NCBI GenBank assembly: GCA_044892505.1
Contig: CM097882.1
Span: 283,030,001-283,094,000 of the forward strand
Length of the DNA stretch: 64,000 nucleotides
From: Schmidtea nova
Taxonomy: Eukaryota
Direction of reading: 5' to 3'
The translations under genes and the position numbers were made by a program. Each line of letters opens with the position of its first letter. Within the stretch, counting starts at the first letter, position 1. Below are positions 1-47,101 of this stretch, one piece after another. The notes under the pieces were generated by a model. That model was given only the letters and a program-made list of their open reading frames with translations, did no database searches and was not told where the DNA came from.

Positions 1-1
1 A

Positions 2-3000
2 ATTGGATATATCTTTGTAAGTTATCGTCTTGGTTAGCGATTTTGTACACCATTCCCTAATATTCCTGAATAATGCTTCTTTTTCACTTTCGAATTTACA
101 CTCTTCTTTGTTTTTGGACATTATGATATTTCCTCTATCTAATAGCGTTAACAGTGTTTTCTGATCACAAACGAATTTTAATAGAAATCGTAATAACGCG
201 TTTTGTCCTTTGCTATATACTTCGTTTATATTTAACACCCATGTATCATTTTCGGATCTTTTCCATTTTATTAGCTTGCGTATTGTTTTGCAGTTACCGA
301 TTTTTATTGCTTCCTTTATTATATCACCTTTGATCAGTTCATCTATTTCCCAAGTGGCCTTCTCGATTATTTGTTTGAGCATTATCTGATTTGAGCTCCA
401 TATTGCGTGATTCAAGACTGTTTTGTTTTCTCTATCGCGTTCTGTCCAGTTGAAATCGGCATTTATCAAAAGGTCTATTATTGCTTTATCCGATTTGTAG
501 ATGGCTGCTACCATTAATGGTGTTTCTTGTTCGCTATTCCCAAAACCAAGGTGTTGGTTTGTTTCCTTAGCGATTTTTAGAAATTCTTTTACTCTCTCTA
601 CTTCTCCCCATTTTATGGCGTTATGTAATGCTGGTTGTCCTCCTATGTCTTCTAGTGAAAGTATTTCTGGAATCTTTTCCAGTAGTTCTGAAATGACTGG
701 TTTTGTTGGTAGTCCCCTTGCGTAATCACTAATTATCGACTGAATATCTCTTAATATATCGTCTCTGAAATGCCATTTTCCCATTATTTCTCTGGCTTTT
801 AGTACAATTTCCTTGTTTCTTTTTTCTCGTTGATTGTTCTCTGCTTCGGTGCTTTCATTGGTTGCTCTGAGCATATTCATTCTGGCTGTCTGGGATCTGG
901 TTATTATTCGTTCTTCTGGCGCTGTGGTTATTGTCTTTGGTACTTTTTTACATCTGCATGTATTAACGTATATTGGTCGTATCAATGGTCGATTAACAAG
1001 TTTTACCTTCACATTGTTTTCCTTTTTGTATATAACTTCGTAAGGGCCTTTTCCTGGTCTTTGTAGTTTTTTAACGGTTCCTGGTATTATTTCTGGGGTT
1101 TCTATCATTACCCAATCTCCGGGTTTAAGATCATTTGTTTTAACATTTTTCTTTTGATCGTGTAGGTCCTTGTAACTTTCTTGATAAAACTTTATGTTTA
1201 GTTCTGCTGTCTTCCATATCTCTTGCATTCGTTCTTTGAATTTGGTGACGTAATCATCTTCCTCCATATATTGAGACAAAGGTGGTTGATATTCAAGATC
1301 TATTGGCATATTGCATTCCCTTCCATACATTAATTGAAATGGACTCAATTTTGTTGCTGCGTGTATCGACATTCGGTATGCCATTAGACATAGCTTTATG
1401 TACTCATCCCAATCTGTTTGGTGTTTGCTTACATAATTGGATAACATTCGAATCAATGTGCCGTTAAATCTTTCCGTTTGTCCATTAGTTTGCGGATGAT
1501 ATGGTGACGTTCGTAATTTGGCTATTCTGAAGTAATTTGTTACTTCATCTAGTATTTCGCTCATAAAATTTGTTCCTTGATCTGTTAGTATTTGTTTCGG
1601 GGTTCCGTATCGACAACATATTTCCTCTACTAAAATTCTTGCTACGGTCTTTGCTTTTTGATCCGGCATCGCAAATGCTTCAGGGAATTTAGTCAAATAA
1701 TCCGTTATTACCAATATATATTGATTCCCGTTTAAACTTTCTGGCAATGGTCCTATTACATCCATCGCAATGGTAGTCATTGGTTCCGCTGGTATTGGCA
1801 TGGGTTTTAAGGGATTTTTCCATTTCTTCCCACTATCCTTTCTTGTGGCACAAGTTAAACAGTTCTTTATCCATTCCTTTACGTCTTCGTCCATTGTTGG
1901 CCAATAATATTTTTGTCTCATGCGATTTAATGTTTTCTTATCGGACATGTGTCCTCCCAACTTTCCGTCATGGTATTGAGTTATTATCTCTTTTCGTCTA
2001 TTACCTGGCAGACACATTAATCGTTTCTCTCCATCTCGTATTAATAACCATCCTTTTTCTATTGTGTATCGATGTTGGTATTTCCTCATGTGTTCCTTTA
2101 ACTCTGCATTGTCTTTGAATACATCCATATTTCGTGAGCTTAGGAATTCTATGATGGGTCTTAGTTCTTTATCCTCTTGCTGATCTTTCTTTAACTCACT
2201 GAAATCCAAATCCTCTGCTATCATTATGCATATTCTTTGCACTTCTGGGTCTGTTAGTTCTGGAAACGTTAATCTTGACATGCAATCTGCGTTGGCATTC
2301 GCTTTTCCTGATTTGAATTTTATATCTGGTGAATATTCTTGTAATTGCATCGCCCATCTCATTAATCTGCTGGATGTTTCCTTATGTTGTCCTAGCCATA
2401 CAAGTGGTTGATGGTCTGTGGTTATGCATATGACGTGTCCCCATAATAGATATTTGAAGTGTTTTATTGCTAATATTATTGCCAATGCTTCTCTTTCCGT
2501 TACTGAATAATTCTTCTCGTGTTTCTTGAATGTTCTGCTATAATATCCGATTACCCGCTCTTTTCCCTCGTCATCATATTGTCCTAACACTGCTCCTGCT
2601 GCATATCCACTTGCGTCGGTTGCGAGTAAAAATGGCTTTTTGAAGTCCGGGTGAACCAATATTGGTGCAGTTATTAGCTTATCTCTCAATGTTTCAAAGG
2701 CTGTTTGTTGTTCGCTTCCCCATATGAACGATACGTCTTTCTTTACTAGCTCCTGGATTGGTTTTGCAATCCCTGCGTAATCCTTTATGAATTTTCTATA
2801 GTAACCGCATAATCCGAGAAATTCTTGGATCTGCGTTATCGTCTTTGGTACTGGACATTCTTTTACTTTATCAATGTTTCTGGGATCTGGTTCCTTTCCT
2901 TTTGCGGACACAATATGTCCTAAGAATGTCACTTTCTCCTTTGCCCAATCGCATTTCGATGGTTTGAGCTTGAGTTTCCATTGTCTCAATCTAACAAATA

Positions 3001-6000
3001 CATCTCTGATATCTTGGATGTGTTGTTCAAATGTGCTTGAGTAGATCAGTAGGTCGTCAATGTAAACCATGCATTGTTTTATGCCGTGGGTAACGAAATT
3101 CATACATCTTTGAAATGATGCTGGCGCATTGGTTAGTCCGAATGGCATTTTCCTAAATTGGTACAAGTCTCTTCCGATAGTGAAAGCAGTTTTCTCTTTG
3201 TCTTCCTCCTTCATTTTAATTTGCCAGTATCCGCTTTTCAAATCTAATGATGTAAAGTATGCCGCTCCTTGTAATGTCAATAACATCTCGTTGATGTCTG
3301 GTAATGGGTATGTATCCCTTTTTGTAACTGTATTTAATCTCCGATAATCAATACAAAATCGTTGTGTTCCGTCTTTCTTTTTCACCATTACAACTGGGAA
3401 TTGCCACGGTGAGCAGCTTGGTTCAATTACTTCTGCGTCTAGCATTTTCTGTACCTCTGCTTCTGCTACTGATTTTTGCGCTTCAGCTAACTTGTATGGT
3501 CTTAAAGCAATCGGCGTTTCGTCTGTTAGTGGAATCGTATGTAGTGTGACGTCACATGTCCCTAGATCTAAATCGGATGCCGCGAATATGTCTTTATATT
3601 CTATCAGTAATCTTTCTAGCTGTTTCTTTTGATCCTCATTCAATAGTTGGCTATCAATGTTCCAAGTGGGTTCTTCCTCTTTTACTCCTTCTTTTATTGG
3701 TATTTCGATATCTATCATTGGAGTTAGTTTACCTAATCTTTCATTTTCATAAATTATTTTATCCTCTTCATCGAAATTTACTACATTTATTGGGATTTCT
3801 CCGTTGTCATTCGCACTCACTAATCCCCTTGCCATTGGCAACGACTTTCTCTTTTCAAATCTTTTACTGGGTTCAAAGATCATGTCACCTTCTATTGTAG
3901 GATCTATTTTTACGAAACATATTTTCTCTCTCCGTGCTGGTACGATTATTTGTTTCGAACTTGTTACTTTTGCTTCTATTGCGCATATCTGTCCTGTCCT
4001 ATCCTTCAATCTCATTGTTCCGAGGTCAATAACTATTTCTTTAAATAATGCTGGCATTAAATCTGTGCCTATAATGCATGGTACGCTTAGTGCTGGTATT
4101 ACTGCTACGTACGTTTCGATTTCCGTGTTTTGATGTTTTATCTTTACCCACCATCTTCCGGCAACTTCTACTACTTCTTTACTGCATGCTATTACGTGAA
4201 CGTTGGTTCTCTCGATATCCCGTCTTTGTTCTTGTGGTATCCATTTTATATCTATTGCTGAGATATTTGCTCCTGTATCGATCATCGCTTCTATTTCCCT
4301 TCCGTTAATTTCGATTGTTGTAGTTAATACTGGACCGGTGTTTGATGACATTACTGCAATTGTATGTGAGTCTCCTTGCGGATCTACGCTTCTGCACCGT
4401 CTCGTTCTATAGTCTTCTGGTATCATAGGATATATGTTTGTCATCGGCATCATTTGCATTGTATTTTGTCTCATCCCTGGTGTTGGTTCTTGGTACATGG
4501 TTGGTGGGGGTGCGTAACACTTCCACATTTCCGCTGGATTCTTTTCGACATACTGTGGTACTTGATTTTTAAATACTTGACCTCCTTCGTTATCATCATC
4601 ATCGTCGTCACTGGAATCGTCTTGGGTTCTGTACCCTTTCATTCTTTCCCATAGTCCTTTTCTCTCTTTCTTTAGTTGTTGTCTTGCTTGCTCGTTATTC
4701 ATTATCTTTTTAAATTTTCGTCCCACCTCTTCATCGGTTCCTTTCATTTTTGCCAGTATTTTTAGGAGTCTCTTTATTCGGTGAATATCTTTTGAATGAC
4801 CGTGTAATACCATTGTTTTAGCCAAAAATGGTAAGAATCCTACCACCAATTTCCAATTTACTTTCTTTTCTCTTTTATAGATGTCAAAACAGGCTAACAT
4901 TTGCGTTATTATTACCCGTATTATTTGTATAATTAGTATAACACCAAGTATTCCTGCCATCATTTGTCCAAATATTAAAAATCTTCCCCACATCGCTTTC
5001 ATCATGTTTTCCGTTGCCTTCTTAAAGTGGGCTGGTGACAATAATAATTCGTAATTTGGTCCACTTTGGTAATTTGTTCCTCCTGTTATTGTTACAATAC
5101 TGGATAACACCGCTTCTCGTCTTGCCGGAAATAGTATGTTTTGTCTTGCTGCTTCTAAATCCTTTGCACTATAGAATCCCATATTGCTTACATCTACGTC
5201 TTTAAATTTTCGTCCTTTTGATAGTTGCATTAATTCAAATTCTCTTGGTGCTGGTACCTCTGTTCTTGACGGAAACATAACCCAATTTCCGTCTGGTTTT
5301 TGGTATAGTGGTCCATATGCGTTGCTACAATTGAAAGGGTTTGGTTCGAAACTTACTGGATTTATGATTCTTGTCACTGGTTGTACATATCTTACTTTCC
5401 CTTTATATTCGATTTCTAGTTCGTTAGTACACTGACCTGGTTGTAGTTTTGTCATTGTCGCTACCTTCGCATTTGTCTTTTTACATATGTATACGTACAT
5501 GACCTCTCCGACTACTCTTCCAAAATGACCTTCTCTTAATGGTAATAATGGCATTGCACTATCCGGGTTTGTGATTGCTACTGCTAATTTTGTCTTTAAT
5601 ATTTCCCTATTTAATATGCAATCGTTGTTTATTAAATCGTAATACACTTTTTGTAGTGACGCTTGTCCTCTATGGAATAGAAAATCCATTTTATTGTTCA
5701 TGTAAAGGTGTAATTTAACATCGTTCGTGTGTACTTTGCGTTTCGCACTAGGTACTTCTTGTTTTGATACAAAAATGCCGGGGTAGTTGGTTTCCAACAT
5801 GGCTACTCCGCATTTCAAGGCTGTTTTTCCTTTTACAAACCTCATTCCGATATCTGCATCTGAGGTAATTAGTACCGTTGGTGTATTTCTCATTTTAATT
5901 TGTTTTTCTTGTGTTCGGGTTTCAATCTTTTTCTCTCCCCGTACTGTGTCTTGAAGTATTTTTCCTCTTGCTGCCTCGTCTTCTTCTTCCTCTTGGAAGG

Positions 6001-9000
6001 TTTTCCCTTGTATCTCATCGAATTCTGCTTCCTTTAACAGTTGTAGTTGACATTCCTTCCCTCGTATCTGGTAGGTTAGGGTTGACATACCAGTCTGACA
6101 AGTGTTTGACTCGATTTTGCACATAGGTAGAGTTTTCATTTCTCCCGTCGTTGGATCGAAGAATGCCTCGTACGTTTTTAGTTCCACTGTATACGTATCT
6201 ATTACCACTAGGTTTGTTGCTGCTACTCCGAATATTGGATATGTTGCTCCTTGGCAGTACCCTTCTCCTCCCGTAATAGCTCCTGCTACATAATATGTTT
6301 GTTGCAATATCACTCCCGTTTTTCCTCTTATCTTTACTCTATCTCTAGTCTCTACTTCTCCATGTTTAAATAATTTTTCACAGTCTTCTCCTTGCAGCAT
6401 TACCGATTCTCTTTCCGTTCCTGGCATCACGATTGCTGAATAATGGCGGTGCCCACAATAAAAAGCAAATCTGGTTTTATAAACTTTGCATTCTCTGACC
6501 ATTGTTCTTATCAGTTCAGCTTCCTGATATACGTGGTATAATTGTCTCTTTTTTAATGTTTTTAGCTCCGTTGGGGTTGCGTCTTTACATTGTTCTGTCC
6601 CTCGTAATGAGTATTTTTCACCTAATGCCATTTGATCACAATCGAATACTTCAAATGCTGTTGCTCCGTCAGTACTAATCATCCATATTAATATCATCAT
6701 AATGATAGAACTCAGGTTTAGTGATGATTTCCCGTTTCCTGTTCCCGACTTTTCCTTTTCCAATTCTCCCAATATCTCTTCGAATTTCTTTTTCATATTT
6801 TTGGCTTGGTTTTTCTTTTGGTTCGTTTTTGTGAATGTTTCCCATCCTCCTTTACTGATGATGTACGGTTCTATTTCTTTCTCTATAATTTTGGCTGTAT
6901 TCTTTATATGTCTTTCAAGTGCTGTGGGTTTCAGTCGACCTCTACTCAGTGTCAGCAGATTGTAGATGGTGTATGCCATAGCTATTAAATATTTGTTATC
7001 CGTCTCTGCTCCTTCCGTTACCTTCTTTATCAACATCGTGGTTCCTTGCCAATCTAGGTGGTTTGACCTTGTCTTCTCTTTTATTAATTCTGGTAGGATT
7101 GGTGCGATGGCGCTATGCAGTGATTTCGCCCTTTCGCTTATTTCATTTATTCTCCACCATTTCTTTAATTCTGGATCGATTATTGCCAGTATTTCCATTA
7201 ACATCTTTGATATCCATTCCTCGCCTTGGTATGTTTGTGTTGTTTCTTTTTCTTTCGTTTCGGCTATTTTATTTAGTTTCTTTAAACACAAATCCCATTG
7301 ATCCCGTCTTTTTTCCTCTCTTGATTTTATAACTACATTTGCTGGATCCATCTTGGGTCTACCTCTAGGTCGTTTATCCATTGTCGTGCCCGTTTCTACT
7401 AATCTTGTTTCTCGTCCAGTTTCTTCTGTGACGTCTCTTGGTTCATTGGCTCTTTCTTCTAACCATCTTTCCATTTCTTGTGTGAATTGTACGTTTTCTA
7501 CATTTGCCCTCCTTGCTTCCTCTTCTGCTATTTCATTTACTTCTTCTATGATTATTTCTTGTTCGACTTCATCTTCGGTGTTGGTTACCGGTATTGCTGT
7601 TGGTAATTCTTGAATTCTTTCGAAAATATTATCATCTTTCTCTTTTGTTAGCTCTATTAACTCCTCTAACATATCATCGCTATCTGTAAAAATTTCGTCT
7701 TCATCGTATGGTTCCGGTGGTGTTCTTTCTCTTGTCTCTCTTGGTGTTGTTCTAGTTTGTTCTGAGCTTGTTCCTGGAGTCATTACCGATTTCATTGGGC
7801 TCGGCGTACTCATACTTCCTTTTGGTTTCTTTTCCTCTTTCAATTTCAATGGTTGGCCTGCTATTGCTGCCACTGTCAATGTATTTGCGATATCTAATTG
7901 CGCTGGCGTTATTCCAATTTCCAAGCTGTTATCTAATGATCGTCCTTGGTGTTGTAAATGGAATGGTGGTTCATATCTCAATTTCTTTTTAATGTCTCGA
8001 ACTTTCTCCGCTATCCCTACCCAAAACTCTTCCTTTTCTTGGTTCGGATATACTATTCTTAGGTGTACTTTCTGTGGCGATTCCTGCGAGAATTCTTGGT
8101 TTCTCCATTTTTTAATTACGTGATCCAATTGTTCTGGACACCACTCGTTAACTCTTTTGTATTCGGCGATTGCTTTTGCTACTTTACGCAAGCATGTTAT
8201 GTCTTCTCCATTAACTACGAAAAAATCTGCGAGACCTTTTACTACTTTTCTCTTGCCGTGCGCATTGGTTTTTAATATTTCGACAAATTCCTCTGTTTTT
8301 TGTTTCTCTCTTTCCAACCACATGGTTGCCGTTTCTGGTCCGTCTATATCAGCTGGCATGGCTTTTCTTGTTACCATACAAACCCTTCCCGTTTCCGGTT
8401 TGTGATCGTCTTCTATGCCTATTTCGTATTCCTCTTCGTATTCGCCTGCTTTTGGTTCCCAACATTTTCCTCGTTCGTTCCACCGTTTTTCTACAGGTGT
8501 TCGTAATCGTCTGTTGAGATTGAGTTCTTCTAATACATCTTCCCATTCTGGCCAAATCCGCCAATTTCGATAAATGTCTACTATTTGTTGTAATTTATGC
8601 ACAACTTCTTTTTGTCGTTCCCGTTCTCTTTTCTCATCCTTAGCCGTTTCTCTTGGTGTATCGTCCATTCTGATAACGTGGATGGTTTGGTGATTATCCC
8701 ATATACCAATTTTATATAGCCGTCTTTCATCGTGATCCCATAATACATGTTCGTTGTATTTCATGATTATGTCATCTTCCCATTCTTCTTCTGGTTCTCT
8801 TTGTAATAGTGTCTCGTTGATGACATTTACTAATTCTTTTATGGTACAATCTGCTACCACTTCAATTTCTTTGGTATCCTCATTAGGTAACTCTACTGCA
8901 ATTTTCAGATCTGTTATTTTCCCTTGTCTGAACATTGCTTTTCCCATTTTGGCAATTACTTTTCCGTATGAGATCTGTGACCATCTCGTGTGACTTGTGT

Positions 9001-11701
9001 CACGTATGCACTCGATACATCGTTTCAACTTTTTGTATTCGCTTCTCATTAACTCCTTTCTATGTTTTTTGATTTGTGGGATGATTTGTTCTATCATGGA
9101 ATTTAGATTTCCTCGTAAGATTCGTCCTTTCTCATATTCTAACCGTGGTTTTATCTTCTTCTCGAAACACGTATTTGCTTCCTTTGCTACTTCTTGTAGG
9201 TTCTCTTCTCTCTTATCATCGCATATCGATAATGTTGTCACCTCTCCTGGCCATATGCCTGTTTCTATCAAATGCGTCCTTTTCTTCACTAGTCCATTCT
9301 GTGAATAGAGGAATTTGTTTTTATATGAACTCCCTAATCTATCCTCTACCCATTGGTAAATATCTTCCGTGAGTGGAGTTTTGATCCAAATCCTTGGCAA
9401 ACATGTTTTTATCTCTATTAGGATTATATATTCATGGAGTGGTTCTTTTAATAATTTTCCTAGGTATTGGCTTAGTGTTTCTACTTCCCGGCCTGGTAAC
9501 CACTCTTTATAGTTCATTTGTAATATCGCTCTCATGAATTTCCGATAGTGTTTCTTGTCGATGAACTCCTCATTATATATTACTTCTAGCGCGTTATCTA
9601 ATAATTTCTGGATCTCGTCCTCTTTTACTTGAATAGTTTCTGGCGTCTTTACTACTTCTATCTTTTTGTCTTCAATTTCCGGTTCGTTTAGCATATCTCC
9701 GGCTAGACTACTGACGTCACTATCCTCTTCGTCATCTGAAAAATTCTTTGCCTGGCCTCTCAACATGTTAATGTGTTTTATCTGGTTGATTTCACTTGGT
9801 GTATTTTCCGTTGATCTTGTTTCACTTTTAATAGCTTTTTGTGTTGATTCACTCTTGTCGTCTACTACTTCGACCTTTCTCAATTTTCGTTCTAACTCGT
9901 CTATTTCTCTCAACCGTCTTCGTATCATTTTCCCTTTAAATATTCGACTGATTCGTGTTTCGTGACGCACTGGCGATGGGATTCCTTCTGGTTCTATTTC
10001 CTTGATTACCATCACATTTCTTTTTGTCTCTACTACTCCCATGTTTTCCCATGTATCCGTTAGTTTCAATTTTACTTCTGGTGCACCTTCTATTTTTAGG
10101 AATGCTTCTCTGGGCAGTTTCGTTACTCCTGGAGCCATTTCATTCACTTTATTGAACAATATTTCTACTTCTTCCTTTATGTTATATTGGAATCGAAACA
10201 CGTGCTTGTTTGGCAAAATTACCATCATTCCTCTTTTCCCGAGTTTCCTTTTCTCTTCTTGGTTCCCTTCTTTTTCTACTTCCTTTTCTGTTTCTTTTTC
10301 TGCTTCTTCGTCTTCTTGTATTATCTCTTTTCGGCCTTCGTTGTTGGTTGGATTCGAGTTTGTTGGATTTATTTCTGGTACAGTCTCTTTCTCGTGGGTA
10401 TTTGTTTGATTGGTTGCTCTCATCATATTAATTCTTAGAGGTTGTCGTTCTCTTTCTTGCTGTTTTTGTTCCTCTTCTCTTTGTATTCTTGCCCATTCCT
10501 GAGCATGTCGTGCTTGACTTTCCCGATTCAATCGTTCGTTTTCGCTTTCTATTTTTCTCATCATATTGATTTGTTGTTGACCTGTTTGCGGATTTCCTCT
10601 GTTTGTATTGTTTATCAGCTCCGTCAATCTTTGAACCTCTTGCATTAAATGTATCTCTTTAGTGGTATTTTTATTTTGGTTATTATTATTACTATTTGGT
10701 TGGTTTCCGTATTCCGGTTGGTTTCCATTATTTGGCTGATTTCCATAATTCTGTCGGTTTCCACCAGTTGGTTGGTTTCCATAGTTTTGTCGGTTTCCGG
10801 TATTCTGCCAATTTCCTCGTTGATTGCTTCTTTGTCCGCAATTTCTTGATAGGTGTCCAGGTCGTCCACAATTAAAACAGGTTATTGTGTAACATCTGCT
10901 CTCTGAATGCCCTTTTACTCCACATTTTCCACAATTCAAGTTCTGATAACATTCTTGTTGCCAATGTCCCAATTTCCCACATGTTTTGCATTGTTTCGTT
11001 GGTCCTTGGGGGTTGTAATTGTTTTGATTTCCGTAATTTGATACTTTATTCCCTTCATTCCTTCGTTGCGGTGGTGGTCGGTTTAATTGTTGTGAATTTG
11101 GGATGTGGTTATTCAGGTTCACTTCTTGTTCGTTTTGTGCTGTATCCATAGCTAAATAGATTCTACCATCATTTCCTATCATGTGTAGTTCAAATCTATT
11201 AGCTGTTTCTAGTGCTTGGTCGATGGTTTTACAACCTTGGCATCCAACTTGCGCTCTTATGTCGGGTCTTCTTAATCCTCCCACAAAGATAGCTGCCATT
11301 AACTCCTCATTTATTGGACTGTCTTGATTGAAAATCAACTTTGCTAACTTTTTTAATTCGCTTGCATATACCGCATTCGATTCATTTATCTTTTGTTTCC
11401 TCATTGAGAATTCCGTGAATGCCTCATTCAATACTTTGTTTATTCCAAAGGTTTGTTGGAAAAAGTCCTTTATCGCTGACCAACTTGTAGGTGGATTAGT
11501 TCCATTTTTTGCTTCCAAATATAGATCTAATGCGCTATCTTTCAAATATAGCTGAATTCTGCTTACAGTTGTTTCTGGTTTCCACTTGCATACTTCCACG
11601 AATATGCCAAATTCCTTTAAGAAAGTTTCCAGTTTACTCGCATCTCCATTAAACGGTTCTCCGGAAAATTTGTCTTTTATCTCTTCTCTGGGTTCGCTCA
11701 T
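2..11701 (-). CDS. Single Gag-Ubl-Bcl2-Env-PR-RT-RH-IN-ankyrin polyprotein, at least 3900 aa, open at the window edge
   Basis: Anchor codons all share one frame (lowest codon coordinate = 2 mod 3): ATG 11699-11701, CCHC 10865, Ubl 8885 and 8063, GGW 6842, FYCG 6452, DTG 4277, YIDD 3053, GGH 1949, ankyrin 623. No ORF ending in this frame is listed in the track, consistent with no stop before position 1. The frame is open upstream to a TAA at 12161-12163. Confidence 0.9.
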   Translation of the reverse strand, partial: MSEPREEIKDKFSGEPFNGDASKLETFLKEFGIFVEVCKWKPETTVSRIQLYLKDSALDLYLEAKNGTNPPTSWSAIKDFFQQTFGINKVLNEAFTEFSMRKQKINESNAVYASELKKLAKLIFNQDSPINEELMAAIFVGGLRRPDIRAQVGCQGCKTIDQALETANRFELHMIGNDGRIYLAMDTAQNEQEVNLNNHIPNSQQLNRPPPQRRNEGNKVSNYGNQNNYNPQGPTKQCKTCGKLGHWQQECYQNLNCGKCGVKGHSESRCYTITCFNCGRPGHLSRNCGQRSNQRGNWQNTGNRQNYGNQPTGGNRQNYGNQPNNGNQPEYGNQPNSNNNNQNKNTTKEIHLMQEVQRLTELINNTNRGNPQTGQQQINMMRKIESENERLNRESQARHAQEWARIQREEEQKQQERERQPLRINMMRATNQTNTHEKETVPEINPTNSNPTNNEGRKEIIQEDEEAEKETEKEVEKEGNQEEKRKLGKRGMMVILPNKHVFRFQYNIKEEVEILFNKVNEMAPGVTKLPREAFLKIEGAPEVKLKLTDTWENMGVVETKRNVMVIKEIEPEGIPSPVRHETRISRIFKGKMIRRRLREIDELERKLRKVEVVDDKSESTQKAIKSETRSTENTPSEINQIKHINMLRGQAKNFSDDEEDSDVSSLAGDMLNEPEIEDKKIEVVKTPETIQVKEDEIQKLLDNALEVIYNEEFIDKKHYRKFMRAILQMNYKEWLPGREVETLSQYLGKLLKEPLHEYIILIEIKTCLPRIWIKTPLTEDIYQWVEDRLGSSYKNKFLYSQNGLVKKRTHLIETGIWPGEVTTLSICDDKREENLQEVAKEANTCFEKKIKPRLEYEKGRILRGNLNSMIEQIIPQIKKHRKELMRSEYKKLKRCIECIRDTSHTRWSQISYGKVIAKMGKAMFRQGKITDLKIAVELPNEDTKEIEVVADCTIKELVNVINETLLQREPEEEWEDDIIMKYNEHVLWDHDERRLYKIGIWDNHQTIHVIRMDDTPRETAKDEKRERERQKEVVHKLQQIVDIYRNWRIWPEWEDVLEELNLNRRLRTPVEKRWNERGKCWEPKAGEYEEEYEIGIEDDHKPETGRVCMVTRKAMPADIDGPETATMWLEREKQKTEEFVEILKTNAHGKRKVVKGLADFFVVNGEDITCLRKVAKAIAEYKRVNEWCPEQLDHVIKKWRNQEFSQESPQKVHLRIVYPNQEKEEFWVGIAEKVRDIKKKLRYEPPFHLQHQGRSLDNSLEIGITPAQLDIANTLTVAAIAGQPLKLKEEKKPKGSMSTPSPMKSVMTPGTSSEQTRTTPRETRERTPPEPYDEDEIFTDSDDMLEELIELTKEKDDNIFERIQELPTAIPVTNTEDEVEQEIIIEEVNEIAEEEARRANVENVQFTQEMERWLEERANEPRDVTEETGRETRLVETGTTMDKRPRGRPKMDPANVVIKSREEKRRDQWDLCLKKLNKIAETKEKETTQTYQGEEWISKMLMEILAIIDPELKKWWRINEISERAKSLHSAIAPILPELIKEKTRSNHLDWQGTTMLIKKVTEGAETDNKYLIAMAYTIYNLLTLSRGRLKPTALERHIKNTAKIIEKEIEPYIISKGGWETFTKTNQKKNQAKNMKKKFEEILGELEKEKSGTGNGKSSLNLSSIIMMILIWMISTDGATAFEVFDCDQMALGEKYSLRGTEQCKDATPTELKTLKKRQLYHVYQEAELIRTMVRECKVYKTRFAFYCGHRHYSAIVMPGTERESVMLQGEDCEKLFKHGEVETRDRVKIRGKTGVILQQTYYVAGAITGGEGYCQGATYPIFGVAATNLVVIDTYTVELKTYEAFFDPTTGEMKTLPMCKIESNTCQTGMSTLTYQIRGKECQLQLLKEAEFDEIQGKTFQEEEEDEAARGKILQDTVRGEKKIETRTQEKQIKMRNTPTVLITSDADIGMRFVKGKTALKCGVAMLETNYPGIFVSKQEVPSAKRKVHTNDVKLHLYMNNKMDFLFHRGQASLQKVYYDLINNDCILNREILKTKLAVAITNPDSAMPLLPLREGHFGRVVGEVMYVYICKKTNAKVATMTKLQPGQCTNELEIEYKGKVRYVQPVTRIINPVSFEPNPFNCSNAYGPLYQKPDGNWVMFPSRTEVPAPREFELMQLSKGRKFKDVDVSNMGFYSAKDLEAARQNILFPARREAVLSSIVTITGGTNYQSGPNYELLLSPAHFKKATENMMKAMWGRFLIFGQMMAGILGVILIIQIIRVIITQMLACFDIYKREKKVNWKLVVGFLPFLAKTMVLHGHSKDIHRIKRLLKILAKMKGTDEEVGRKFKKIMNNEQARQQLKKERKGLWERMKGYRTQDDSSDDDDDDNEGGQVFKNQVPQYVEKNPAEMWKCYAPPPTMYQEPTPGMRQNTMQMMPMTNIYPMIPEDYRTRRCRSVDPQGDSHTIAVMSSNTGPVLTTTIEINGREIEAMIDTGANISAIDIKWIPQEQRRDIERTNVHVIACSKEVVEVAGRWWVKIKHQNTEIETYVAVIPALSVPCIIGTDLMPALFKEIVIDLGTMRLKDRTGQICAIEAKVTSSKQIIVPARREKICFVKIDPTIEGDMIFEPSKRFEKRKSLPMARGLVSANDNGEIPINVVNFDEEDKIIYENERLGKLTPMIDIEIPIKEGVKEEEPTWNIDSQLLNEDQKKQLERLLIEYKDIFAASDLDLGTCDVTLHTIPLTDETPIALRPYKLAEAQKSVAEAEVQKMLDAEVIEPSCSPWQFPVVMVKKKDGTQRFCIDYRRLNTVTKRDTYPLPDINEMLLTLQGAAYFTSLDLKSGYWQIKMKEEDKEKTAFTIGRDLYQFRKMPFGLTNAPASFQRCMNFVTHGIKQCMVYIDDLLIYSSTFEQHIQDIRDVFVRLRQWKLKLKPSKCDWAKEKVTFLGHIVSAKGKEPDPRNIDKVKECPVPKTITQIQEFLGLCGYYRKFIKDYAGIAKPIQELVKKDVSFIWGSEQQTAFETLRDKLITAPILVHPDFKKPFLLATDASGYAAGAVLGQYDDEGKERVIGYYSRTFKKHEKNYSVTEREALAIILAIKHFKYLLWGHVICITTDHQPLVWLGQHKETSSRLMRWAMQLQEYSPDIKFKSGKANANADCMSRLTFPELTDPEVQRICIMIAEDLDFSELKKDQQEDKELRPIIEFLSSRNMDVFKDNAELKEHMRKYQHRYTIEKGWLLIRDGEKRLMCLPGNRRKEIITQYHDGKLGGHMSDKKTLNRMRQKYYWPTMDEDVKEWIKNCLTCATRKDSGKKWKNPLKPMPIPAEPMTTIAMDVIGPLPESLNGNQYILVITDYLTKFPEAFAMPDQKAKTVARILVEEICCRYGTPKQILTDQGTNFMSEILDEVTNYFRIAKLRTSPYHPQTNGQTERFNGTLIRMLSNYVSKHQTDWDEYIKLCLMAYRMSIHAATKLSPFQLMYGRECNMPIDLEYQPPLSQYMEEDDYVTKFKERMQEIWKTAELNIKFYQESYKDLHDQKKNVKTNDLKPGDWVMIETPEIIPGTVKKLQRPGKGPYEVIYKKENNVKVKLVNRPLIRPIYVNTCRCKKVPKTITTAPEERIITRSQTARMNMLRATNESTEAENNQREKRNKEIVLKAREIMGKWHFRDDILRDIQSIISDYARGLPTKPVISELLEKIPEILSLEDIGGQPALHNAIKWGEVERVKEFLKIAKETNQHLGFGNSEQETPLMVAAIYKSDKAIIDLLINADFNWTERDRENKTVLNHAIWSSNQIMLKQIIEKATWEIDELIKGDIIKEAIKIGNCKTIRKLIKWKRSENDTWVLNINEVYSKGQNALLRFLLKFVCDQKTLLTLLDRGNIIMSKNKEECKFESEKEALFRNIREWCTKSLTKTITYKDISN
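250..650 (-). other. Ankyrin-repeat region fused downstream of integrase (element 1)
   Basis: GQPALHNAIKWGEVREVKEFLK, EQETPLMVAAIYKSDKAIIDLLINADFNWTERD and ENKTVLNHAIWSSNQIMLKQII match the ankyrin TPLHxA...V.xLL pattern at about 33-aa spacing. Confidence 0.8.
1000..2000 (-). other. Integrase domain (element 1)
   Basis: YHDGKLGGH...CLTC zinc motif, AMDVIGPLP, LTDQGTNF, PYHPQTNGQTERFN, and C-terminal GKGPYEV. Confidence 0.97.
2290..3560 (-). other. Reverse transcriptase and RNase H (element 1)
   Basis: RFCIDYRRLN, LDLKSGYWQI, MPFGLTNAPASFQR, VYIDDLLI, FLGLCGYYRKFI, LATDASGYAAGAVL, YSVTEREALA, TDHQPL. Confidence 0.98.
3990..4330 (-). other. Retroviral-type aspartic protease (element 1)
   Basis: IEINGREIEAMIDTGANISAI ... 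CIIGTDLM. Confidence 0.95.
4800..6720 (-). other. Envelope glycoprotein, chuvirus-G / herpes gB-like (class III fusogen-like), element 1
   Basis: Hydrophobic signal SIIMMILIWMISTDGATA, then a Cys-rich ectodomain of about 550 aa (FEVFDC, YHVYQE, VRECKV..FYCGHRHY, NDCILNREILK..AITNP, GRVVGEVMYVYICK), then TM FLIFGQMMAGILGVILIIQII. Family assignment is from recalled motifs. Confidence 0.75.
6830..7300 (-). other. Bcl-2-like domain (element 1)
   Basis: BH2-like TAKIIEKEIEPYIISKGGWETF, preceded by BH1-like IKKVTEGAETDNKYLIAMAYTIY. It occupies the same position as a clearer copy in element 2. Confidence 0.6.
7860..10228 (-). other. Cluster of 2-4 ubiquitin-like/UBX-like beta-grasp domains (element 1)
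   Basis: About 8670-8910: LKIAVELPNEDTKEIEVVADCTIKEL...MKYNEHVLWD..RRLYKIGIWD..TIHVI. About 7860-8070: KVHLRIVYPNQEKEEFWVGIAEKVRDIKKKL..FHLQHQGRSLD. Weaker candidates at about 9225-9430 (LIETGIWPGEVTTL) and 10005-10228 (MMVILPNKHVFRF..LKLTDTWENMGV). Confidence 0.55.
10830..11701 (-). other. Gag (capsid-like region plus three CCHC zinc knuckles), element 1
   Basis: PFNGDASKLETFLKEF...YLKDSALDLY, then CKTCGKLGHWQQEC, CGKCGVKGHSESRC, CFNCGRPGHLSRNC. Confidence 0.93.
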
Positions 11702-12677
11702 TTCAATTCCGCTGTCTGTAGTTATTTTACTTTCGTTTCCTCTTGTTTCTAGTTCACTGTTAGGTTCGTCACTCGAATTTCGGTCGATCTCAGTTTCTTT
11801 TGCTGATTCGTTATCTGATGCTTTACTATCGTTATCGGTATCGTCACTTTCTGTTTCTTGTTCTACTTCGTCTTCTATTTCTTCTATATAATCGTTGTTG
11901 GTTTTGTCGACTTCTATTTCACTTATTGGGTTTCTCTCGGGTTCTGCTTGATTTTCTTTGTTGCTTGAACTGTTGCTTGTTACTGATAATTTATCGTTTT
12001 CGATAATCGACTTTTGTATTATTATCTGCCTTGCTTTACTTCCTTTTGGGCCTTTCTGATTATTATTCTTGGTAGCTTTATTCTTTTCTGCTGGTTTTAT
12101 TATGACACTCTTTTCTCCTTTTCTCAACGGAATTACTTTTGTATACTCAATTTTCCTGTCTTATCGTGTTCCGATTCTTTTCTTCCTTAGTTGATTGGTT
12201 TGGTTTGATTGATTTATCTAAAATACAAATGTCACTTCAACGATACTCTATTGTTATCGTTGCGCTTTTATTCCCTTTTTACGGGACTTCTCATTACTGG
12301 GTTTCTATTATTTTTCCCCATTCCCAGATTCCCCTTTATTTAAGTCTATTTAAATTATCTATATACTAGTCACAATTATCTATTTAGTCATAACAATTAT
12401 CTATCGGTTATTAAAATACATCAATTATTTTTCCCGCGGTCTCCCAATTTATTTGTCGTTCGAACGCTCTAATTCCCTGAGTCATTTGACTCGATTATTA
12501 TTTTATCATCTCTTTATCTTTCTCTCTGCTAGCCTCTAATTATTAATTCTGCCGGTCTTTCCGGTCAGCTCCTATTTCTCAATTCTACTTGCATGCATTA
12601 TTTTAGGTCGCATAATCAGCTTTACTCGCATTTCTCTATTATCGGTGCGCACTATTCTCATTATCGTCGACGATCAC

Positions 12678-13075
12678 AACTCTGGGCCTATATTCCCTCT
12701 GTTGTTATTTCTTATCACTTGCAACCCTGGGCCTATATTCCCTCCGTTGCTACTCAAATGATTGTAACCCTGGGCTTATATTCCCTCCGTTAATATCTTC
12801 CTTTAATTTTAAATAATTGCAACCCTGGGCCTATATTCCCTCCGTTGCTACTCAACAATTGTAACCCTGGGCCTATATTCCCTCCGTTACTATATATCCG
12901 GATATCCCTATTGGCTCCTTTGGCCTCTAATTAATATCAATTATCTCAAATGGCTCTTATGGCCTCAAATTCATATTTCATTATCTCAAATGGCTCTATT
13001 GGCCTTAAATTCATATCTCAATTATCTCAAATGGCTCTATTGGCCTTAAATCATATCTCTCAATAACGCCTAGCT
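12678..13075. repeat. Two short tandem arrays in the 5' leader of element 1
   Basis: About 5 copies of caaccctgggcctatattccctccgtt (12678-12890) and about 4 copies of atctcaaatggctctattggcct (12930-13060). Confidence 0.85.
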
Positions 13076-13103
13076 AGGTCATTCAATATGGCTCTTTGGC
13101 CTC

Positions 13104-13317
13104 AACCCTTTGTTTCAAGGGACAAACCGCTGATAACCCTTTGTTTCAAGGGACAAATTCTAATAACCCTTTGTTTCAAGGGACAAACCGCTGATAACCC
13201 TTTGTTTCAAGGGACAAATTCTAATAACCCTTTGTTTCAAGGGACAAACCGCTGATAACCCTTTGTTTCAAGGGACAAATTCTAATAACCCTTTGTTTCA
13301 AGGGACAAACCGCTGAT
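13104..13317. repeat. Alternating 31/30-bp tandem array (ABABABA) in the leader of element 1
   Basis: Core aaccctttgtttcaagggacaaa followed alternately by ccgctgat or ttctaat; unit starts at 13104, 13135, 13165, 13196, 13226, 13257, 13287. Confidence 0.95.
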
Positions 13318-13794
13318 AACTTTTCCTTAACCGGTTAATCGTAATTCTTAACTTCGCTAGCGACTACAATTTCTCAGCTGAGTTCTCTCAATTTCATGCG
13401 AGCTGATTATGCACCTCTTATTTTTCTCTATAATTCCTCGATTCTTTGTTTTATTACTAATTCTTTCGCTGATCAGTCATAATTCAATTTTTATTATTTT
13501 CTCTGCGCGCATCTTACCTCATCAGGGTTTTCCCTATTTCTCTCCCCAACCAAAATATACAAAAAGATCGCGTTGGTCTACTAATGCGGGATGTGGTGAT
13601 CAATCACATCACAAAAGCTTTCCAACATTTGCGATTGGCCCCTTTCTATATACCCCGAGTGGGTTGATCAACTGGTACCTCCCAATGGGTGCTTAACGGA
13701 CTACTTGACAGTAGCTCAAAAATTAATTAACATTGTTGATTGCTCCCTTGACTTTGTCATTCGATACAATATATTAACACACTCTAAATATTTA

Positions 13795-14256
13795 TTATAA
13801 ATAAACTACAATTTTATCAGCTACAGAGAAATTGCACATGGGGCACTCATCACACTTATTCGCACAGTTTTTACAGAATCGAAAATGTCCACATGGTAAA
13901 AACATTATTTGGATTTCACTGTTTTCGCATATGTAACATTGTTTATATTGTTTTGCTGCCTCGACCCCTTGCGACATCCATCGGTTATATGTTAGGCTTA
14001 ACTGCTGTTCTATATGTCGGCATCTGATATTCAACTCGGCATCCTCTAATCGTGCTTTGTACCATTTATATCGCGTATTTATATCGAGTTTATTTACTTT
14101 CTCTATGATTTTTATTAACTCAGTTGTTTCCTCAGTTTGTGTCGTAGGTTCCTCATATTCGGATGCTCTTATTCGGGTTATTTTTTCGCAGACTGTCTCA
14201 AATGTTTCGTTCTCGGTGTTGAAAAATTCCTCGATTTCTTTCAGTTTTTCCTCCAT
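13795..14256 (-). CDS. IAP/MDM2-type C-terminal RING-HC protein (153 aa, no BIR domain) between PBS and gag
   Basis: CYICENSEIQIMFLPCGHFRFCKNCANKCDECPMCNFSVADKIVVYL-stop: C3HC4 spacing with the short hydrophobic tail typical of IAP RINGs; coiled-coil-like N-terminus. Confidence 0.85.
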   Translation of the reverse strand: MEEKLKEIEEFFNTENETFETVCEKITRIRASEYEEPTTQTEETTELIKIIEKVNKLDINTRYKWYKARLEDAELNIRCRHIEQQLSLTYNRWMSQGVEAAKQYKQCYICENSEIQIMFLPCGHFRFCKNCANKCDECPMCNFSVADKIVVYL

Positions 14257-14562
14257 TTCCTAGATAATTTATTTAATTACTGTGTTAATATTATTCGAAA
14301 AGTAGTACTGTGTTTCGTTTCTGACAGTTTTATAGCCTCCCCCCGTGTTTCGGTAAAATGTCGTCCCGACCTGTTATTTATGAATGCATTTGTTTAATTT
14401 ATCTACTAATTTGTTTTAATTCTCTGTTTGTAATTATCTATTTCCACGCAACTCACTCTTATCTCGATTACTCTTTCGGTTACTATTTCTACTCACAAAA
14501 TTCTGATTTTAAATTTCTCTGTTGTCATTGGGTTCACATTTTCCGCATAAAAACAAAGTTGA

Positions 14563-14580
14563 ATCCCGGCTGAGCCCCCA
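14563..14580 (-). promoter_or_regulatory. Primer-binding site, tRNA-Pro-like (element 1)
   Basis: Minus strand TGGGGGCTCAGCCGGGAT matches the canonical tRNA-Pro PBS TGGGGGCTCGTCCGGGAT at 16/18. Confidence 0.8.
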
Positions 14581-15114
14581 AATTTATGCTGGGATTATGG
14601 GTGGGTTTTAAGTAATTCAAATAAACAATTAATCATACTAGGGATTCCGCGCCCATAACCATACATAACATGACTACTACACGCGTATGCCCTTGACTAT
14701 TCCCTACTAGTCAAGTTGGTACTGCATACGGTGGTGGAAAAATGATGGGCAGGTGAGCTTTGTCGCCAAAACTACTCCCCATTTATCTTCCCTCGGGTTC
14801 TTGCTGCCGATAGAAGGTCTTACGCATTTACATTCTATGGATGTTCGTTTCTTACTGCATTTTATACTACATATACTTATGATCTATCACACGCTTTTCC
14901 CAATGACGCTCTCCCTCGCTGTTCTACAAGCCGACGAAAACTCTCGCTGCTAAGCAACGGTCGGTGTAGGTTTTACGATGCGATTTTCAGTTCTACGAAT
15001 TACTTATGTAGTCTTATTTTATTTAGTGAAATCACAAGATGAGAGAAAAAATTTACCCAGTAATACTTTTATTGAAATAATAAAGACAGGTTGTTATTTT
15101 ACATTGAGGTTTTC

Positions 15115-15699
15115 CTATTCAAACTCCAGGCTAATCTCCTGGATTAACTCTGCTTCGGTTAAGGAATTCAGGTGGTGGATTTGTTCGTCCAGGCGCTTTG
15201 CAAATTCTCGGCGACGACGGCGCTGTCGCGATCCCATTCGATGTTTTCGAAGCTGTTGGTTTATGACCGGTGCTGACGCTATTATTCTCGGGGGATCACT
15301 GAGAAAAATGGGCAAATCTTCCGTTGTAAGAGTGGGTGCCATGATGATATCATCTTCTGTCCCGCAAGCGACATCTTGGTGAGTGCATGGTATCCAGCGC
15401 TGAGCCGTGATCGGCCGGATTAGCGCTCGCAATTCGGAGTCGATGTAACTTCTTGTTACTGCGTTCAGGCAATTTCGGAGTTCTCGCTGGACGGCATCCA
15501 GTTCCAATTTGGTTGTAGCCAATGCTTCCTGCACTCGCTCGAGTTTTTTCGACTGGTCCTTCATCTGTTCGGGCGAGAACCACTTCGCTTTCAATTCATC
15601 ATTGGCGACCGTGAGTCGCTTGATCTGTCGCTGCTGGTCCCTCAGCTTTCTCTCTTGAATTTGTCCCATGATTTTCTTCGAATTTTCTGAAGCCGGCAT
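15115..15699 (-). CDS. Unknown 194-aa coiled-coil protein with Arg-rich motif, inside the candidate LTR
   Basis: ATG-started ORF, GC-richer than its flanks, heptad-like N-half, RQRRRRR motif, and AATAAA on the minus strand at about 15068-15073. Confidence 0.55.
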   Translation of the reverse strand: MPASENSKKIMGQIQERKLRDQQRQIKRLTVANDELKAKWFSPEQMKDQSKKLERVQEALATTKLELDAVQRELRNCLNAVTRSYIDSELRALIRPITAQRWIPCTHQDVACGTEDDIIMAPTLTTEDLPIFLSDPPRIIASAPVINQQLRKHRMGSRQRRRRREFAKRLDEQIHHLNSLTEAELIQEISLEFE

Positions 15700-16015
15700 G
15701 TTGTCTGAAGATTATAACGATAAATCCACTGGAGGGCCTATCAATAATGTTATTTTATTTAAACAACTATTATTATTATTACACGAGATGTATATTAATG
15801 TTTTTAATTGTTGAGTTCTCTACAAAATTATTTAACTATCTAATCATTGAAGACTCAAAAGGTTTATTGAACTAATTTTATATTAATAAATGAATTTCCT
15901 AATGACTATAACAACTACAATACTAAATCTACATGACAACACTATTAACAAAACGAACATTTCAGAATTCTTTAAAACATTTATTTAATTTAAAAACAGG
16001 CGGCCATTGGTTCAG

Positions 16016-16492
16016 CTATTCATCCTCGGTCATTTTTCCTCGATACGAAAATACCGAGCGGATCTGCAAATTTGTATGGATTCCTGTGCTATTGGACGAG
16101 GCCTGCTGGAAACGGATTCTCTCAGCTTCTCGGAGGGGTCGGATGGCTGTATTGAACTTGAACCCCAATTCCTTGAAGGTAGAGGCTGGAATGAACCCCC
16201 AATAAATGACACATCTCGGGAATCCACCTTTGTCCAACATCATGATGAACCAGGCGGCGTGCCATGATTCGTATTCCTCGTCTGGAATGATTGGCCAACT
16301 AGCGCATCCCCGGTACCATACGTGATGCCGTGGATGGTCCCATACTGTAAATGGACAGGCGGTTTCGAGCTCTCGGCGCCATGCCCACATCTTTTGGTGA
16401 ATTTGCTGTAAAATCTCGAAAGGAGCCGGCTTTAATGGGCTAACTCGGGCTCGTTCTTGTCGTTTTTTGATAGTGTATCTATGCTTAGCCAT
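16016..16492 (-). CDS. Unknown 158-aa Trp/His-rich protein, inside the candidate LTR
   Basis: ATG-started ORF, GC-richer than its flanks, same strand as the element; no family recognised. Confidence 0.5.
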   Translation of the reverse strand: MAKHRYTIKKRQERARVSPLKPAPFEILQQIHQKMWAWRRELETACPFTVWDHPRHHVWYRGCASWPIIPDEEYESWHAAWFIMMLDKGGFPRCVIYWGFIPASTFKELGFKFNTAIRPLREAERIRFQQASSNSTGIHTNLQIRSVFSYRGKMTEDE

Positions 16493-18105
16493 GATTCCAA
16501 AATGATGCTGAATTTTATAATAGTTACAATTTACATCAATAATTAATCATAGTAAATGTTATCTCTCATCGTGATTCCCTTATTATTTGCCTTCCCCTTA
16601 GACCTTAGCTGAAATCAAGAAAAAACTGTTGTTTGTTACAGTATACATTACTCTCGTATCTACTTAGATTTATCTGTTTACGATCAAGTTGATAGACGAA
16701 AAATTGATGATTTGTCTGCTTGGATTTTCAAAATATTGGTACCTCAAAACGGAAACTCTCTCCCGTCATGTATCCCTAGTTTATTCGAAAAAACGCTCTT
16801 TTGTACCAAACGCGGTCGACATAATTTTCCTAAGGTTTATTAGACGTTTATTAAACAGCGGCGCTGTGGTGAGGGTGAAAAATTGTGCCTCCTCCCGGTT
16901 AACAACTTCTTTCATATCTTTAAGCTTTATCAAAAAATTCTCGTCCCCTCTGTAACTAAAATGATCAGAAAATAATTTCCCGGATTTGTTGGGTGTCCCA
17001 TGTGCAAGTCTCAACCACTACTAATAAAATTGTGCTTTACTATTTATTACTTTACCGTGTGTGGAGCCCTCGAGCACCACGCCACGGACGGACACCTTGG
17101 GAACCTAAAGCTCCCAACGGCGCAAAATTAATATGATCATTATATATTTTAATGTTGAGTCTAATCACAATAACGTTTAATTCATATAACAAATTTCAAC
17201 ACATGAATGCATAAACACATAAATAATTAGATCAATAGATAAATGACAAAGCAAATGACACAATCATGAATAAAATAATACAGAAACCAAAATACCTAAT
17301 TCGTCTGGGTTTGCTTCGATCGGTTCGTCTAGAATTCAAAGTCTATTTGATTAGTGAGCTAAATTTTACACTCTCAACTGACGTTGTAAGATTAGGTATT
17401 AAGTCTGTTTTATCCAAAGTCTGATCAGTATTTATACTGATCAGTCTGATCTAGACTGACCAATCGGATTTGGCCGATTTCATGGTGGGTTTTAATTATT
17501 GTTTTTGATTCTAATTAATTTTTATTTTTTAGATTGTATTCTTCCTTGGAGGTCCGGGTTTCAAAAACAATTATTCAATAACAAGTACTTTTATTTGGTT
17601 TTAATTATTATTATTTGTATTTTATTTGTTTTTAGATGTCTCCTGGGCCCGTTAATATCTATAAATTCATTTATTTTTATTTATAGCTTGTACTTAGTTA
17701 TTCTATATTTTTACTATATTATTCCTTTCTTTTAATAAATAAATATTCCCCTTTTTACCTTATTTTTCTCTTTTTTGTTTTAATTAATCTACTTTTATTT
17801 CATTTTTTTCTCTATTTGGCTGGCCCAACACAAATATCTTGATAAAATGTTAAATAACCTCAATATTAAATTACATTCATTGATTAAAACAAAAAAAAAC
17901 AGATTGATAAATAATAGGATTACAGACATATGGAGATAAGTTATAAGAAAATTAATATAATTAATACGGTATACATGTCAACCTGATATAGATCATTACA
18001 TTTTTAAACTCAAGGATGCCGGAAAACGGGATGACACTAAATATAGTAATTGTTATTTTGAACTGTTAAAAGTAGAAACTTTGATTAAAAACAAATATAA
18101 TTTAC

Positions 18106-18449
18106 GGTAAGTGCCGGTTTTGATACTATTTTGAATTTTTAATACTATTTTGAATTTTTAATAANNNNNNNNNNNNNNNNNNNNNNNNNNNNNNNNNNNN
18201 NNNNNNNNNNNNNNNNNNNNNNNNNNNNNNNNNNNNNNNNNNNNNNNNNNNNNNNNNNNNNNNNNNNNNNNNNNNNNNNNNNNNNNNNNNNNNNNNNNNN
18301 NNNNNNNNNNNNNNNNNNNNNNNNNNNNNNNNNNNNNNNNNNNNNNNNNNNNNNNNNNNNNNNNNNNNNNNNNNNNNNNNNNNNNNNNNNNNNNNNAAAA
18401 TTCAAAATAGTATTAAAAATTCAAAATAGTATCAAAACCGGCACTTACC
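18106..18449. mobile_element. Small TIR element (MITE-like) spanning an N gap
   Basis: ggtaagtgccggttttgatactattttgaatttttaatactattttgaatttt at 18106 is the reverse complement of the sequence from 18397 to 18449; the interior is N. Confidence 0.6.
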
Positions 18450-45160: not shown

Positions 45161-45277
45161 TGTAAATTGGAGTAGGAAATTTTTTAAAATAGTGGTAAAA
45201 AAAGTTTTCAATTACGCACACACACCATCTCGGTTATGATACTCATCTGTCAATTACCTTTTGTTTGATATACATAT

Positions 45278-46071
45278 TGTTGGGTATTTTGTTGAAAGTC
45301 GGTTCTAATTTCTGACTCCTGGTGTTCTTTTAACAAATAATTAACCCAACACAATAACCTTTATTTCAATATCACACTTTATCACAATGATTGAACAATA
45401 TAAGAACTGTCTTTTCACACTGAACTTAACTGCTTTCAAGTCACTTGCTGCAAGGGATAAGTCTCCCAACGGAAGATCTCCCTTTCTGGTGCGCAAACAA
45501 ATGAATTAAATTTTACTCTACAACACTACCTTTTCGGACTCTTCTTCTAATTTTAATCTGTTCATTTTGAAATCTTATCTCTTCGACCACTGGCCCCACA
45601 TTGCAATTTGCTTCTCCTTTTATAGTGCTTCCTCCTTAATGCTTGATTGTTCTGTCTCCCAATTTTGACATTTTAATCTACGACTCAAATTAAACTGTCA
45701 TATTGTAATTTAGTAGCTCTCGCCGTTTCCACATCCTTAGAGCAAATTGAACTGTCACTTCGCTTGAGCGGGTTTCTCTCCTCTCTCGGGCTCTCCATTG
45801 GCTCGGGTTTCCCATTGTCTCGGGCTTTCCCTTAGCCAATTAATTCTTAATTAATATTTTAAATTTTTAATTGTTTCTTTCTGGGGACCCCCCATCGATT
45901 TTATTTTTATTTATTTGAATTCGTCTCATAATTTGGCACACACCCATACCAATTTCCCCCATGATATATTAATTTTAAATTTTATTAATTTTTTAATTAA
46001 TGTTTTAATATTTGGTGATTTTTGCAATTTTATTACTTTTAAATTTTGAGTCACTTTGACAAACCCCAACA
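45278..46071 (-). repeat. 3' LTR of element 2 (794 bp)
   Basis: TGTTGGG...CCCAACA termini; identical to 60038-60831 except at 45769 and 45922. Confidence 0.98.
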
Positions 46072-46086
46072 TATCTCCCCCCTTTA
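46072..46086 (-). promoter_or_regulatory. Polypurine tract of element 2
   Basis: Minus strand AAAGGGGGGAGATA immediately before the 3' LTR TG. Confidence 0.9.

Positions 46087-47058: not shown

Positions 47059-47101
<43 letters not shown>

Follow-up and report, generated by a model that had tools for sequence, protein, structure and literature searches.

A RING-only open reading frame upstream of gag in a giant Burro-type retrotransposon of Schmidtea nova

A giant retrotransposon of Schmidtea nova carries, ahead of gag, an intact open reading frame (ORF) for a protein of 153 amino acids that ends in a RING domain. This ORF lies inside the element, is cargo of its family, and is under purifying selection. 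It runs on the minus strand from an ATG at 14256 to a TAA at 13795 of the window (13795..14256), by which we mean the whole stretch of 64,000 nucleotides that we analyzed. With middling confidence, we propose that it encodes an E3 ubiquitin ligase that acts as a dimer and is aimed at a host protein by a targeting domain of its own, and that it is likely expressed from its own spliced mRNA.

The element, as assembled from the window and the adjacent genomic DNA, comprises 28.3 kb between two identical long terminal repeats (LTRs) of 3244 bp. The 5′ LTR (14587..17830, minus strand) has TG...CA ends, its 100% identical 3′ partner lies 25 kb downstream and outside the window, and TTTG is duplicated at the two ends of the element. 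The primer-binding site (PBS; 14563..14580, minus strand) is complementary at 18/18 positions to the end of one of this genome's tRNA-Pro(TGG) genes with CCA appended. From the PBS to the ATG of the RING ORF there are 306 nt, so a preliminary description of this DNA was right to place an intact ORF of 153 codons about 300 bp after the PBS on the element's strand, and its assignment of the PBS and LTR holds as well. The genes for the primer tRNA of these elements form a long 308-bp tandem array (G000:C1:459609706 onward), and the tRNA-Pro(TGG) pattern has 1106 matches genome-wide. The LTR contains two ORFs of 158 and 194 amino acids (16492-16016 and 15699-15115, minus strand) with no Pfam match. 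Just outside the 5′ LTR lies a perfectly spaced inverted repeat of 172 bp, at 97% (18106-18449).

We refer to this element's family as A, to its sister subfamily (at 76-83%) as B, and to a third family as C. A genome search with the RING ORF gave 9316 candidates, of which 150 were scored; all 150 matched, 93 of them at 90% identity or above, and 136 have no internal stop. Among the 87 gag copies found at or above 96%, 86 have the ORF 1973-2329 nt upstream, and in the remaining one it lies at 20 kb. Seven of the 93 RING copies are unlinked to gag by their coordinates, and all seven are within element sequence that is diverged, deleted, or interrupted. We fetched 50 copies, and the start, stop, and length of the ORF are identical in all of them; 49 lack an internal stop, and in 48 the PBS is found 319-416 nt upstream (searched for within 900 nt). 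Subfamily B retains the start, stop, and length of the ORF too, along with two similar-sized ORFs in its very diverged LTR. Between A and B, dN/dS for the RING ORF is 0.05-0.09 in 10 of 10 pairs, and in both halves of the ORF where dS could be computed, although these values are approximate because dS is near saturation (pS of 0.64). On the same comparison the RING ORF (0.086) falls between the gag core (0.044) and TRAF (0.154) or env (0.163). Given the low dN/dS and the 136 of 150 matches without an internal stop, the ORF is not there by chance. Flanking host DNA was considered and rejected, given the identical LTR pair, the linkage to gag, and the placement of the unlinked copies within element sequence. 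The preliminary description had allowed that other full-length copies might lack the ORF, or that the PBS and LTR might be misassigned and the ORF be host sequence; because linkage is family-wide, the PBS is conserved, and the ORF is under selection, neither is the case.

Downstream of the RING ORF are tandem repeat arrays of families D3 and D10 (12660..13320, minus strand) and then ORF1, a polyprotein of 5140 codons from stop to stop (1..12160, minus strand) that runs past the end of the window. ORF1 contains gag with zinc knuckles, a weak Bcl-2-like region, a class III env, protease (PR), reverse transcriptase (RT), RNase H, integrase, and ankyrins. The match of the Bcl-2-like region is weak (E=0.11), with no match in the PDB, and the region is homologous to the Bcl-2/env region of a second element in the window. 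No ubiquitin-like (Ubl) match was obtained in four segments of ORF1; weak Ubl and/or Bcl-2 matches occur in the second element and in family C. Beyond ORF1 are a TRAF ORF (MATH, E=2e-21) and three further ORFs. The TRAF-like ORF is full length, with zinc fingers, a coiled coil, and MATH (L031:4782-6191, minus strand, past the window's left end and downstream of pol), and it is under purifying selection. The second element has gag, env, and pol over about 15 kb (45273-60900, minus strand) but is broken into several frames, and it has a different PBS, a leader of about 400 nt, and no RING ORF.

This architecture makes the element a Burro-type giant gag-env-pol retrotransposon, an assignment that rests on the architecture rather than on a reference Burro sequence or an RT tree. 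The Burro/GYPSM1 elements of planarians have the same size of about 30 kb, LTRs of several kb, a single gag-env-pol ORF of about 5000 amino acids, and env between a BCL2-like region and PR, as here, and they share the ankyrins, the TRAF cargo, the tandem repeats, and the presence of accessory ORFs (PMC6431247 section 7). The cargo listed for them is BIR, MATH/TRAF, BCL2, Ubl, and ankyrin, with no mention of a stand-alone RING ORF before gag (PMC6431247 section 7). Unlike in that description, TRAF is here a separate ORF downstream of pol, and families A and B lack BIR. GAG-ENV-POL errantiviruses of Platyhelminthes with a gB-type env have the same ORF order and a class III env; neither "RING" nor "Burro" occurs in the main text of the paper that describes them (PMC13524379). 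The preliminary description had likened the extra ORF to that of Ogre elements; this is apt as a positional analogy only, as the family is Burro and not Ogre. Ogre elements, which belong to Ty3/gypsy, are likewise giant and have an extra ORF, with ORF1 placed upstream of gag, but their hosts are plants. The function of the extra ORFs of Ogre is not known (PMC6431247 section 7).

Pfam's zf-C3HC4_3 matches residues 105-143 of the RING ORF (E=2.3e-11). The C3HC4 RING proper, from Cys107 to Cys141 with Asn142 at the linchpin site, and the tail KIVVYL with Tyr152 occupy 13798..13938 (minus strand). The zinc ligands have the spacing seen in IAPs, and the eight ligands are invariant in 49-50 of the 50 fetched copies. 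In two sequence searches of the PDB, the best matches were the RINGs of XIAP and cIAP2, and MDM2 was not among the matches at E≤0.001 in either search. When a predicted (AF2) model was compared to structures with Foldseek, IDOL, cIAP2, and XIAP ranked first, with the RING superposing on them at 1.0-1.6 Å, and MDM2 appeared only at rank 37. The RING had been described as IAP/MDM2-style; because MDM2 is missing from the sequence matches, it is of the IAP/IDOL type rather than the MDM2 type. The protein is not itself an IAP (BIRC), which has at least one BIR domain: as had been noticed at the outset, Pfam finds no BIR in the ORF, and the rest of the coding strand lacks one too in both A and B. 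Nor does the ORF have a match to UBA, CARD, or FERM.

Among the terminal hydrophobic residues that had been pointed out as needed for dimerization is Tyr152. It lies 11 residues past the last cysteine, which is the register of Phe616 in cIAP1 (Cys605+11; PMC6349121 section 8). Ile109, His124, Pro139, Met140, and Tyr152 are each invariant in 50/50 copies, and all of these except Pro139 correspond to residues in a map drawn from the structure of cIAP1-UbcH5B-Ub, namely Val573, His588, Ile604, and Phe616 (PMC6349121 section 8). Two other residues of cIAP1, Met575 and Arg614, are replaced by Glu111 and Val150. The linchpin arginine is also absent, with Asn142 in all 50 copies. Across lineages the linchpin is N in A and B, K or R in family C, and D in P0002, a homologue discussed below; it is arginine in the B-IAP-type gene of this genome and in three of three RING exons that do not look like parts of elements. 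The proline site drifts as well (P, V, or N), while the tail aromatic is retained in every lineage (Y, Y, F, Y) and the tail pattern K-I-x-x-aromatic is common to the four. Because the linchpin is asparagine, we predict a ligase activity that is moderate. Linchpins elsewhere compare as follows: XIAP, a dimer, has tyrosine there and is active, and even glutamate weakens it just slightly (PMC12326332 section 13); RNF38, a monomeric RING, is almost inactive with a non-basic linchpin (PMC12326332 section 8); cIAP1 R606A is defective (PMC6349121 section 8); and RBX1 also has asparagine at this site.

Residues 1-104 (13945..14256, minus strand) form an N-terminal domain that is predicted to be all-helical and has no match to a known family; it is a candidate for the part that targets or oligomerizes the protein. 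A helix at residues 73-104 is predicted to lead into the RING (pLDDT 67-85 by block). The first AF2 model was poor (pLDDT 54); in the second (pLDDT 70, pTM 0.44), pLDDT is low at residues 32-56 and the packing of the front domain is only tentative. Foldseek gave no credible match for the front domain, Atlas returned no usable match for residues 1-104, and word-index searches of proteins of near length gave no match at E≤0.001. A homodimer prediction scored 0.00, which is no evidence either way. We also considered a UBA-like front domain, which was rejected by profile alignment and shuffle tests. Compared to cIAP1/2, XIAP, BIRC7, and IDOL/MYLIP, then, the protein shares the C3HC4 spacing, the pre-RING helix (as predicted here), the hydrophobic residues facing the E2, and the aromatic at Cys+11, but it differs in its asparagine linchpin, its novel N-terminal domain, and its lack of any match to their BIR, UBA, CARD, or FERM domains.

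Burro elements are known to carry another RING gene. B-IAP of Burro1 is described as a protein with a BIR plus a RING, and it is reported to shield planarian stem cells from caspase-mediated death (PMC13465017). A search of the S. nova genome for BIR domains is dominated by a BIR...RING ORF of 399 codons that fits B-IAP as described there. Like our ORF, B-IAP is an IAP-type RING on a Burro element, but it has a BIR, a different position, and an unrelated front domain. The two genes coexist in family C, which is a high-copy, non-autonomous Burro derivative of about 21 kb from LTR to LTR (G000:C1:350785689-350810602) with the same PBS. In the two copies of C that we examined, gag, env, RT, and integrase are missing, and the main frame is at most 1197 codons in all 150 scored copies. 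What family C keeps is an ORF of 1045 codons (Ubl-like, protease, and ankyrin), TRAF, the 399-codon BIR-RING gene located after TRAF, several intact coiled-coil or membrane ORFs, and, between the PBS and the main ORF, a RING ORF of 160 amino acids. This 5′ ORF is a full-length homologue of ours at 27% identity and is intact in 149/150 and 150/150 scored copies. Families A and C have homologous front domains (z=12.5, with 0 of 2000 shuffles scoring as high), and these are unrelated to the pre-RING region of B-IAP (z of 0.1-0.4). A profile alignment of the ORF and B-IAP (hhalign, 97%) is confined to 52 RING columns, and the RING is identical to that of B-IAP at 18 of 46 positions, as compared to 20 for family C and 22 for P0002. 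Because family C has a full-length homologue of the ORF alongside a distinct BIR-RING gene, the ORF is not a truncated B-IAP but an independent gene.

P0002 shows that the gene exists in another organism's sequence data. It is a full-length homologue of 160 amino acids whose identity to the sequences scored in this genome does not exceed 40%, and it was the only such homologue among the 150 matches listed in a HMMER search of representatives. The other matches listed are centered on the RING, and any helical extension beyond it is weaker, as judged from the 10 sequences that we inspected. Overall identity to the homologues in family C and P0002 is 27-31%, with the front domain conserved, and that domain of about 100 residues matches only homologues of this ORF.

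How might the protein act? The pre-RING helix, the RING, and the tail would form a dimer in the style of the IAPs, with Tyr152 priming E2~Ub in trans, and the N-terminal domain would replace the BIRs as the selector of substrates. We infer this last role from the conservation of the domain and from the way in which RING ligases arrange their domains. Substrates would most likely belong to apoptosis and TRAF signaling, at which the rest of the element's cargo is directed, and the outcome would be survival of the cells in which the element is expressed. The preliminary description had offered a dominant-negative or a retargeted IAP ligase, and the latter seems to fit best, as the front domain is conserved and is unrelated to the pre-RING region of B-IAP. 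It had also suggested joint action with the Bcl-2 and Ubl cargo, which for Bcl-2 is not borne out: both of the family C copies that we checked have the RING ORF but show no match to the Bcl-2-like region, and the second element in the window has a Bcl-2-like region without a RING ORF. More specifically, and only tentatively, we suggest a separately spliced Burro E3 whose helical domain marks a host defense or cell-death protein for destruction. It would be a retrotransposon's counterpart of the viral accessory proteins that degrade restriction factors, more widespread than B-IAP and retained by non-autonomous copies.

In a version of the dominant-negative idea, the protein might instead have little ligase activity of its own and, rather like MDMX, serve as a partner or decoy that heterodimerizes through its helix and tail with the RINGs of host IAPs or B-IAP and tunes, stabilizes, or redirects them. 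We consider this rather unlikely. It would account for a tail that is kept in four lineages while the linchpin and the proline site drift, and for the presence of the ORF beside B-IAP in family C. Yet A and B have no BIR gene and the ORF is still under strong selection there, so B-IAP cannot be the partner that it needs. Also, the hydrophobic residues that face the E2 are retained, and a pure decoy has no need of a conserved front domain of 100 residues. On these features a ligase of moderate activity appears likelier than a partner or decoy.

Alternatively, the protein could be an E3 or adaptor for the element's own life cycle that ubiquitinates Gag or the polyprotein, or removes a silencing or restriction factor, with no link to cell death. 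The lack of a BIR and the failure to co-segregate with the Bcl-2-like region are what we would expect if so, and large DNA viruses often encode small RING proteins. But family C retains the ORF while lacking gag (although action in trans is possible), the most similar RINGs are those of IAPs, and TRAF is part of the element's cargo too, so we think this improbable. Finally, a remnant of B-IAP or an upstream ORF that merely dampens the translation of gag, as the RING match to B-IAP and the position before gag might suggest, is very improbable and largely refuted by the restriction of that match to the RING, by the unrelated front domains, by a RING no closer to that of B-IAP than to those of family C and P0002, by the fact that family C has both genes, and by the strong selection on the ORF's amino acids.

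Burro elements, their apoptosis and ubiquitin cargo, and B-IAP were already known. In the literature that we searched, we found no description of an ORF with only a RING, either in Burro elements or ahead of gag, let alone one with its own conserved domain; the primary Burro papers (Grohme 2018, Lee 2026) and their supplements, which may annotate the ORF, are outside this scope. The ORF described here adds a second RING gene that is distinct from B-IAP: families without B-IAP have it, one family has it beside B-IAP, and it also occurs in sequence data from another organism. If the dimeric E3 that we favor is an active ligase, it would offer a direct way to study how a retrotransposon alters the ubiquitin signaling of its host, and the front domain would represent a new kind of module for binding substrates.

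With an ORF in the way, gag needs some route around it, as had been recognized, and among splicing, re-initiation, and an IRES, splicing is what the sequence suggests. Scanning to gag is implausible, as 41 ATGs intervene between the PBS and the ATG of gag. A candidate 3′ splice acceptor at 14260..14268 (minus strand) has a YAG that ends 3 nt before the ATG of the RING ORF. Both A and B have a YAG at this site, and in family C one immediately precedes the ATG; in A the pyrimidine tract is weak (5/12) and the TAG doubles as an in-frame stop. More broadly, the accessory ORFs with a YAG ending no more than 6 nt ahead of their ATG number 6 of 7 in family A, 7 of 7 in subfamily B, and 7 of 9 in family C, as compared to 15-20% of other ATGs. 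Discounting in-frame TAGs lowers these counts to 4, 4, and 5, and A and B, being related, are not independent of each other. For gag-pol the candidate acceptor is TTTGTATTTTAG (12218..12229, minus strand), which is conserved in A and B and is followed by 516 nt without an ATG up to the ATG of gag at 11701. This stretch, of 516-655 nt, has no ATG in 18 of the 18 copies that could be measured (21 were tried), with about 5 expected (0 and 1 of 300 in simulations).

Taken together, the acceptor-like YAGs and the ATG-free stretch before gag make it likely that the RING ORF and gag-pol are on separate spliced mRNAs, with acceptors at 14260 and 12218 that would be joined by cis-splicing or, alternatively, by spliced leader (SL) trans-splicing. 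SL trans-splicing exists in free-living flatworms (PMC8629364). For cis-splicing, a weak candidate donor is GC/GTAAG at 14823 in the LTR (14816..14828, minus strand). It is present in 45 of 48 loci of A and B (two B copies lack the GT and one is unmatched) and absent from family C. GTGAGT donors after the PBS are present in A, absent from most copies of B, and absent from C, so we found no universal donor across the three families. No genomic copy of a spliced RNA turned up among 40 scored of 4528 candidates or among the RING-copy loci that were checked, and four sequencing runs of unrecorded kind, as contigs, contained no joint at the predicted splice sites, which is uninformative. The acceptor pattern makes a testable prediction as to how gag is expressed behind another gene in a 28-kb element.

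Two other features of this region are worth recording. First, ORF1 has an open extension without an AUG (12160-11702, minus strand), with 153-208 codons before the first ATG of gag in 12 of the 13 copies that were tried; it contains no stops where about 10 are expected, and its omega is 0.30. The extension opens with a conserved AAA-ATT-G, which could be a non-AUG start. Second, a non-coding block after the stop of the RING ORF (13790-13500, minus strand) is 84-88% identical between A and B, which is above the identity of the ORF itself, and it is a candidate for a packaging signal or another RNA signal.
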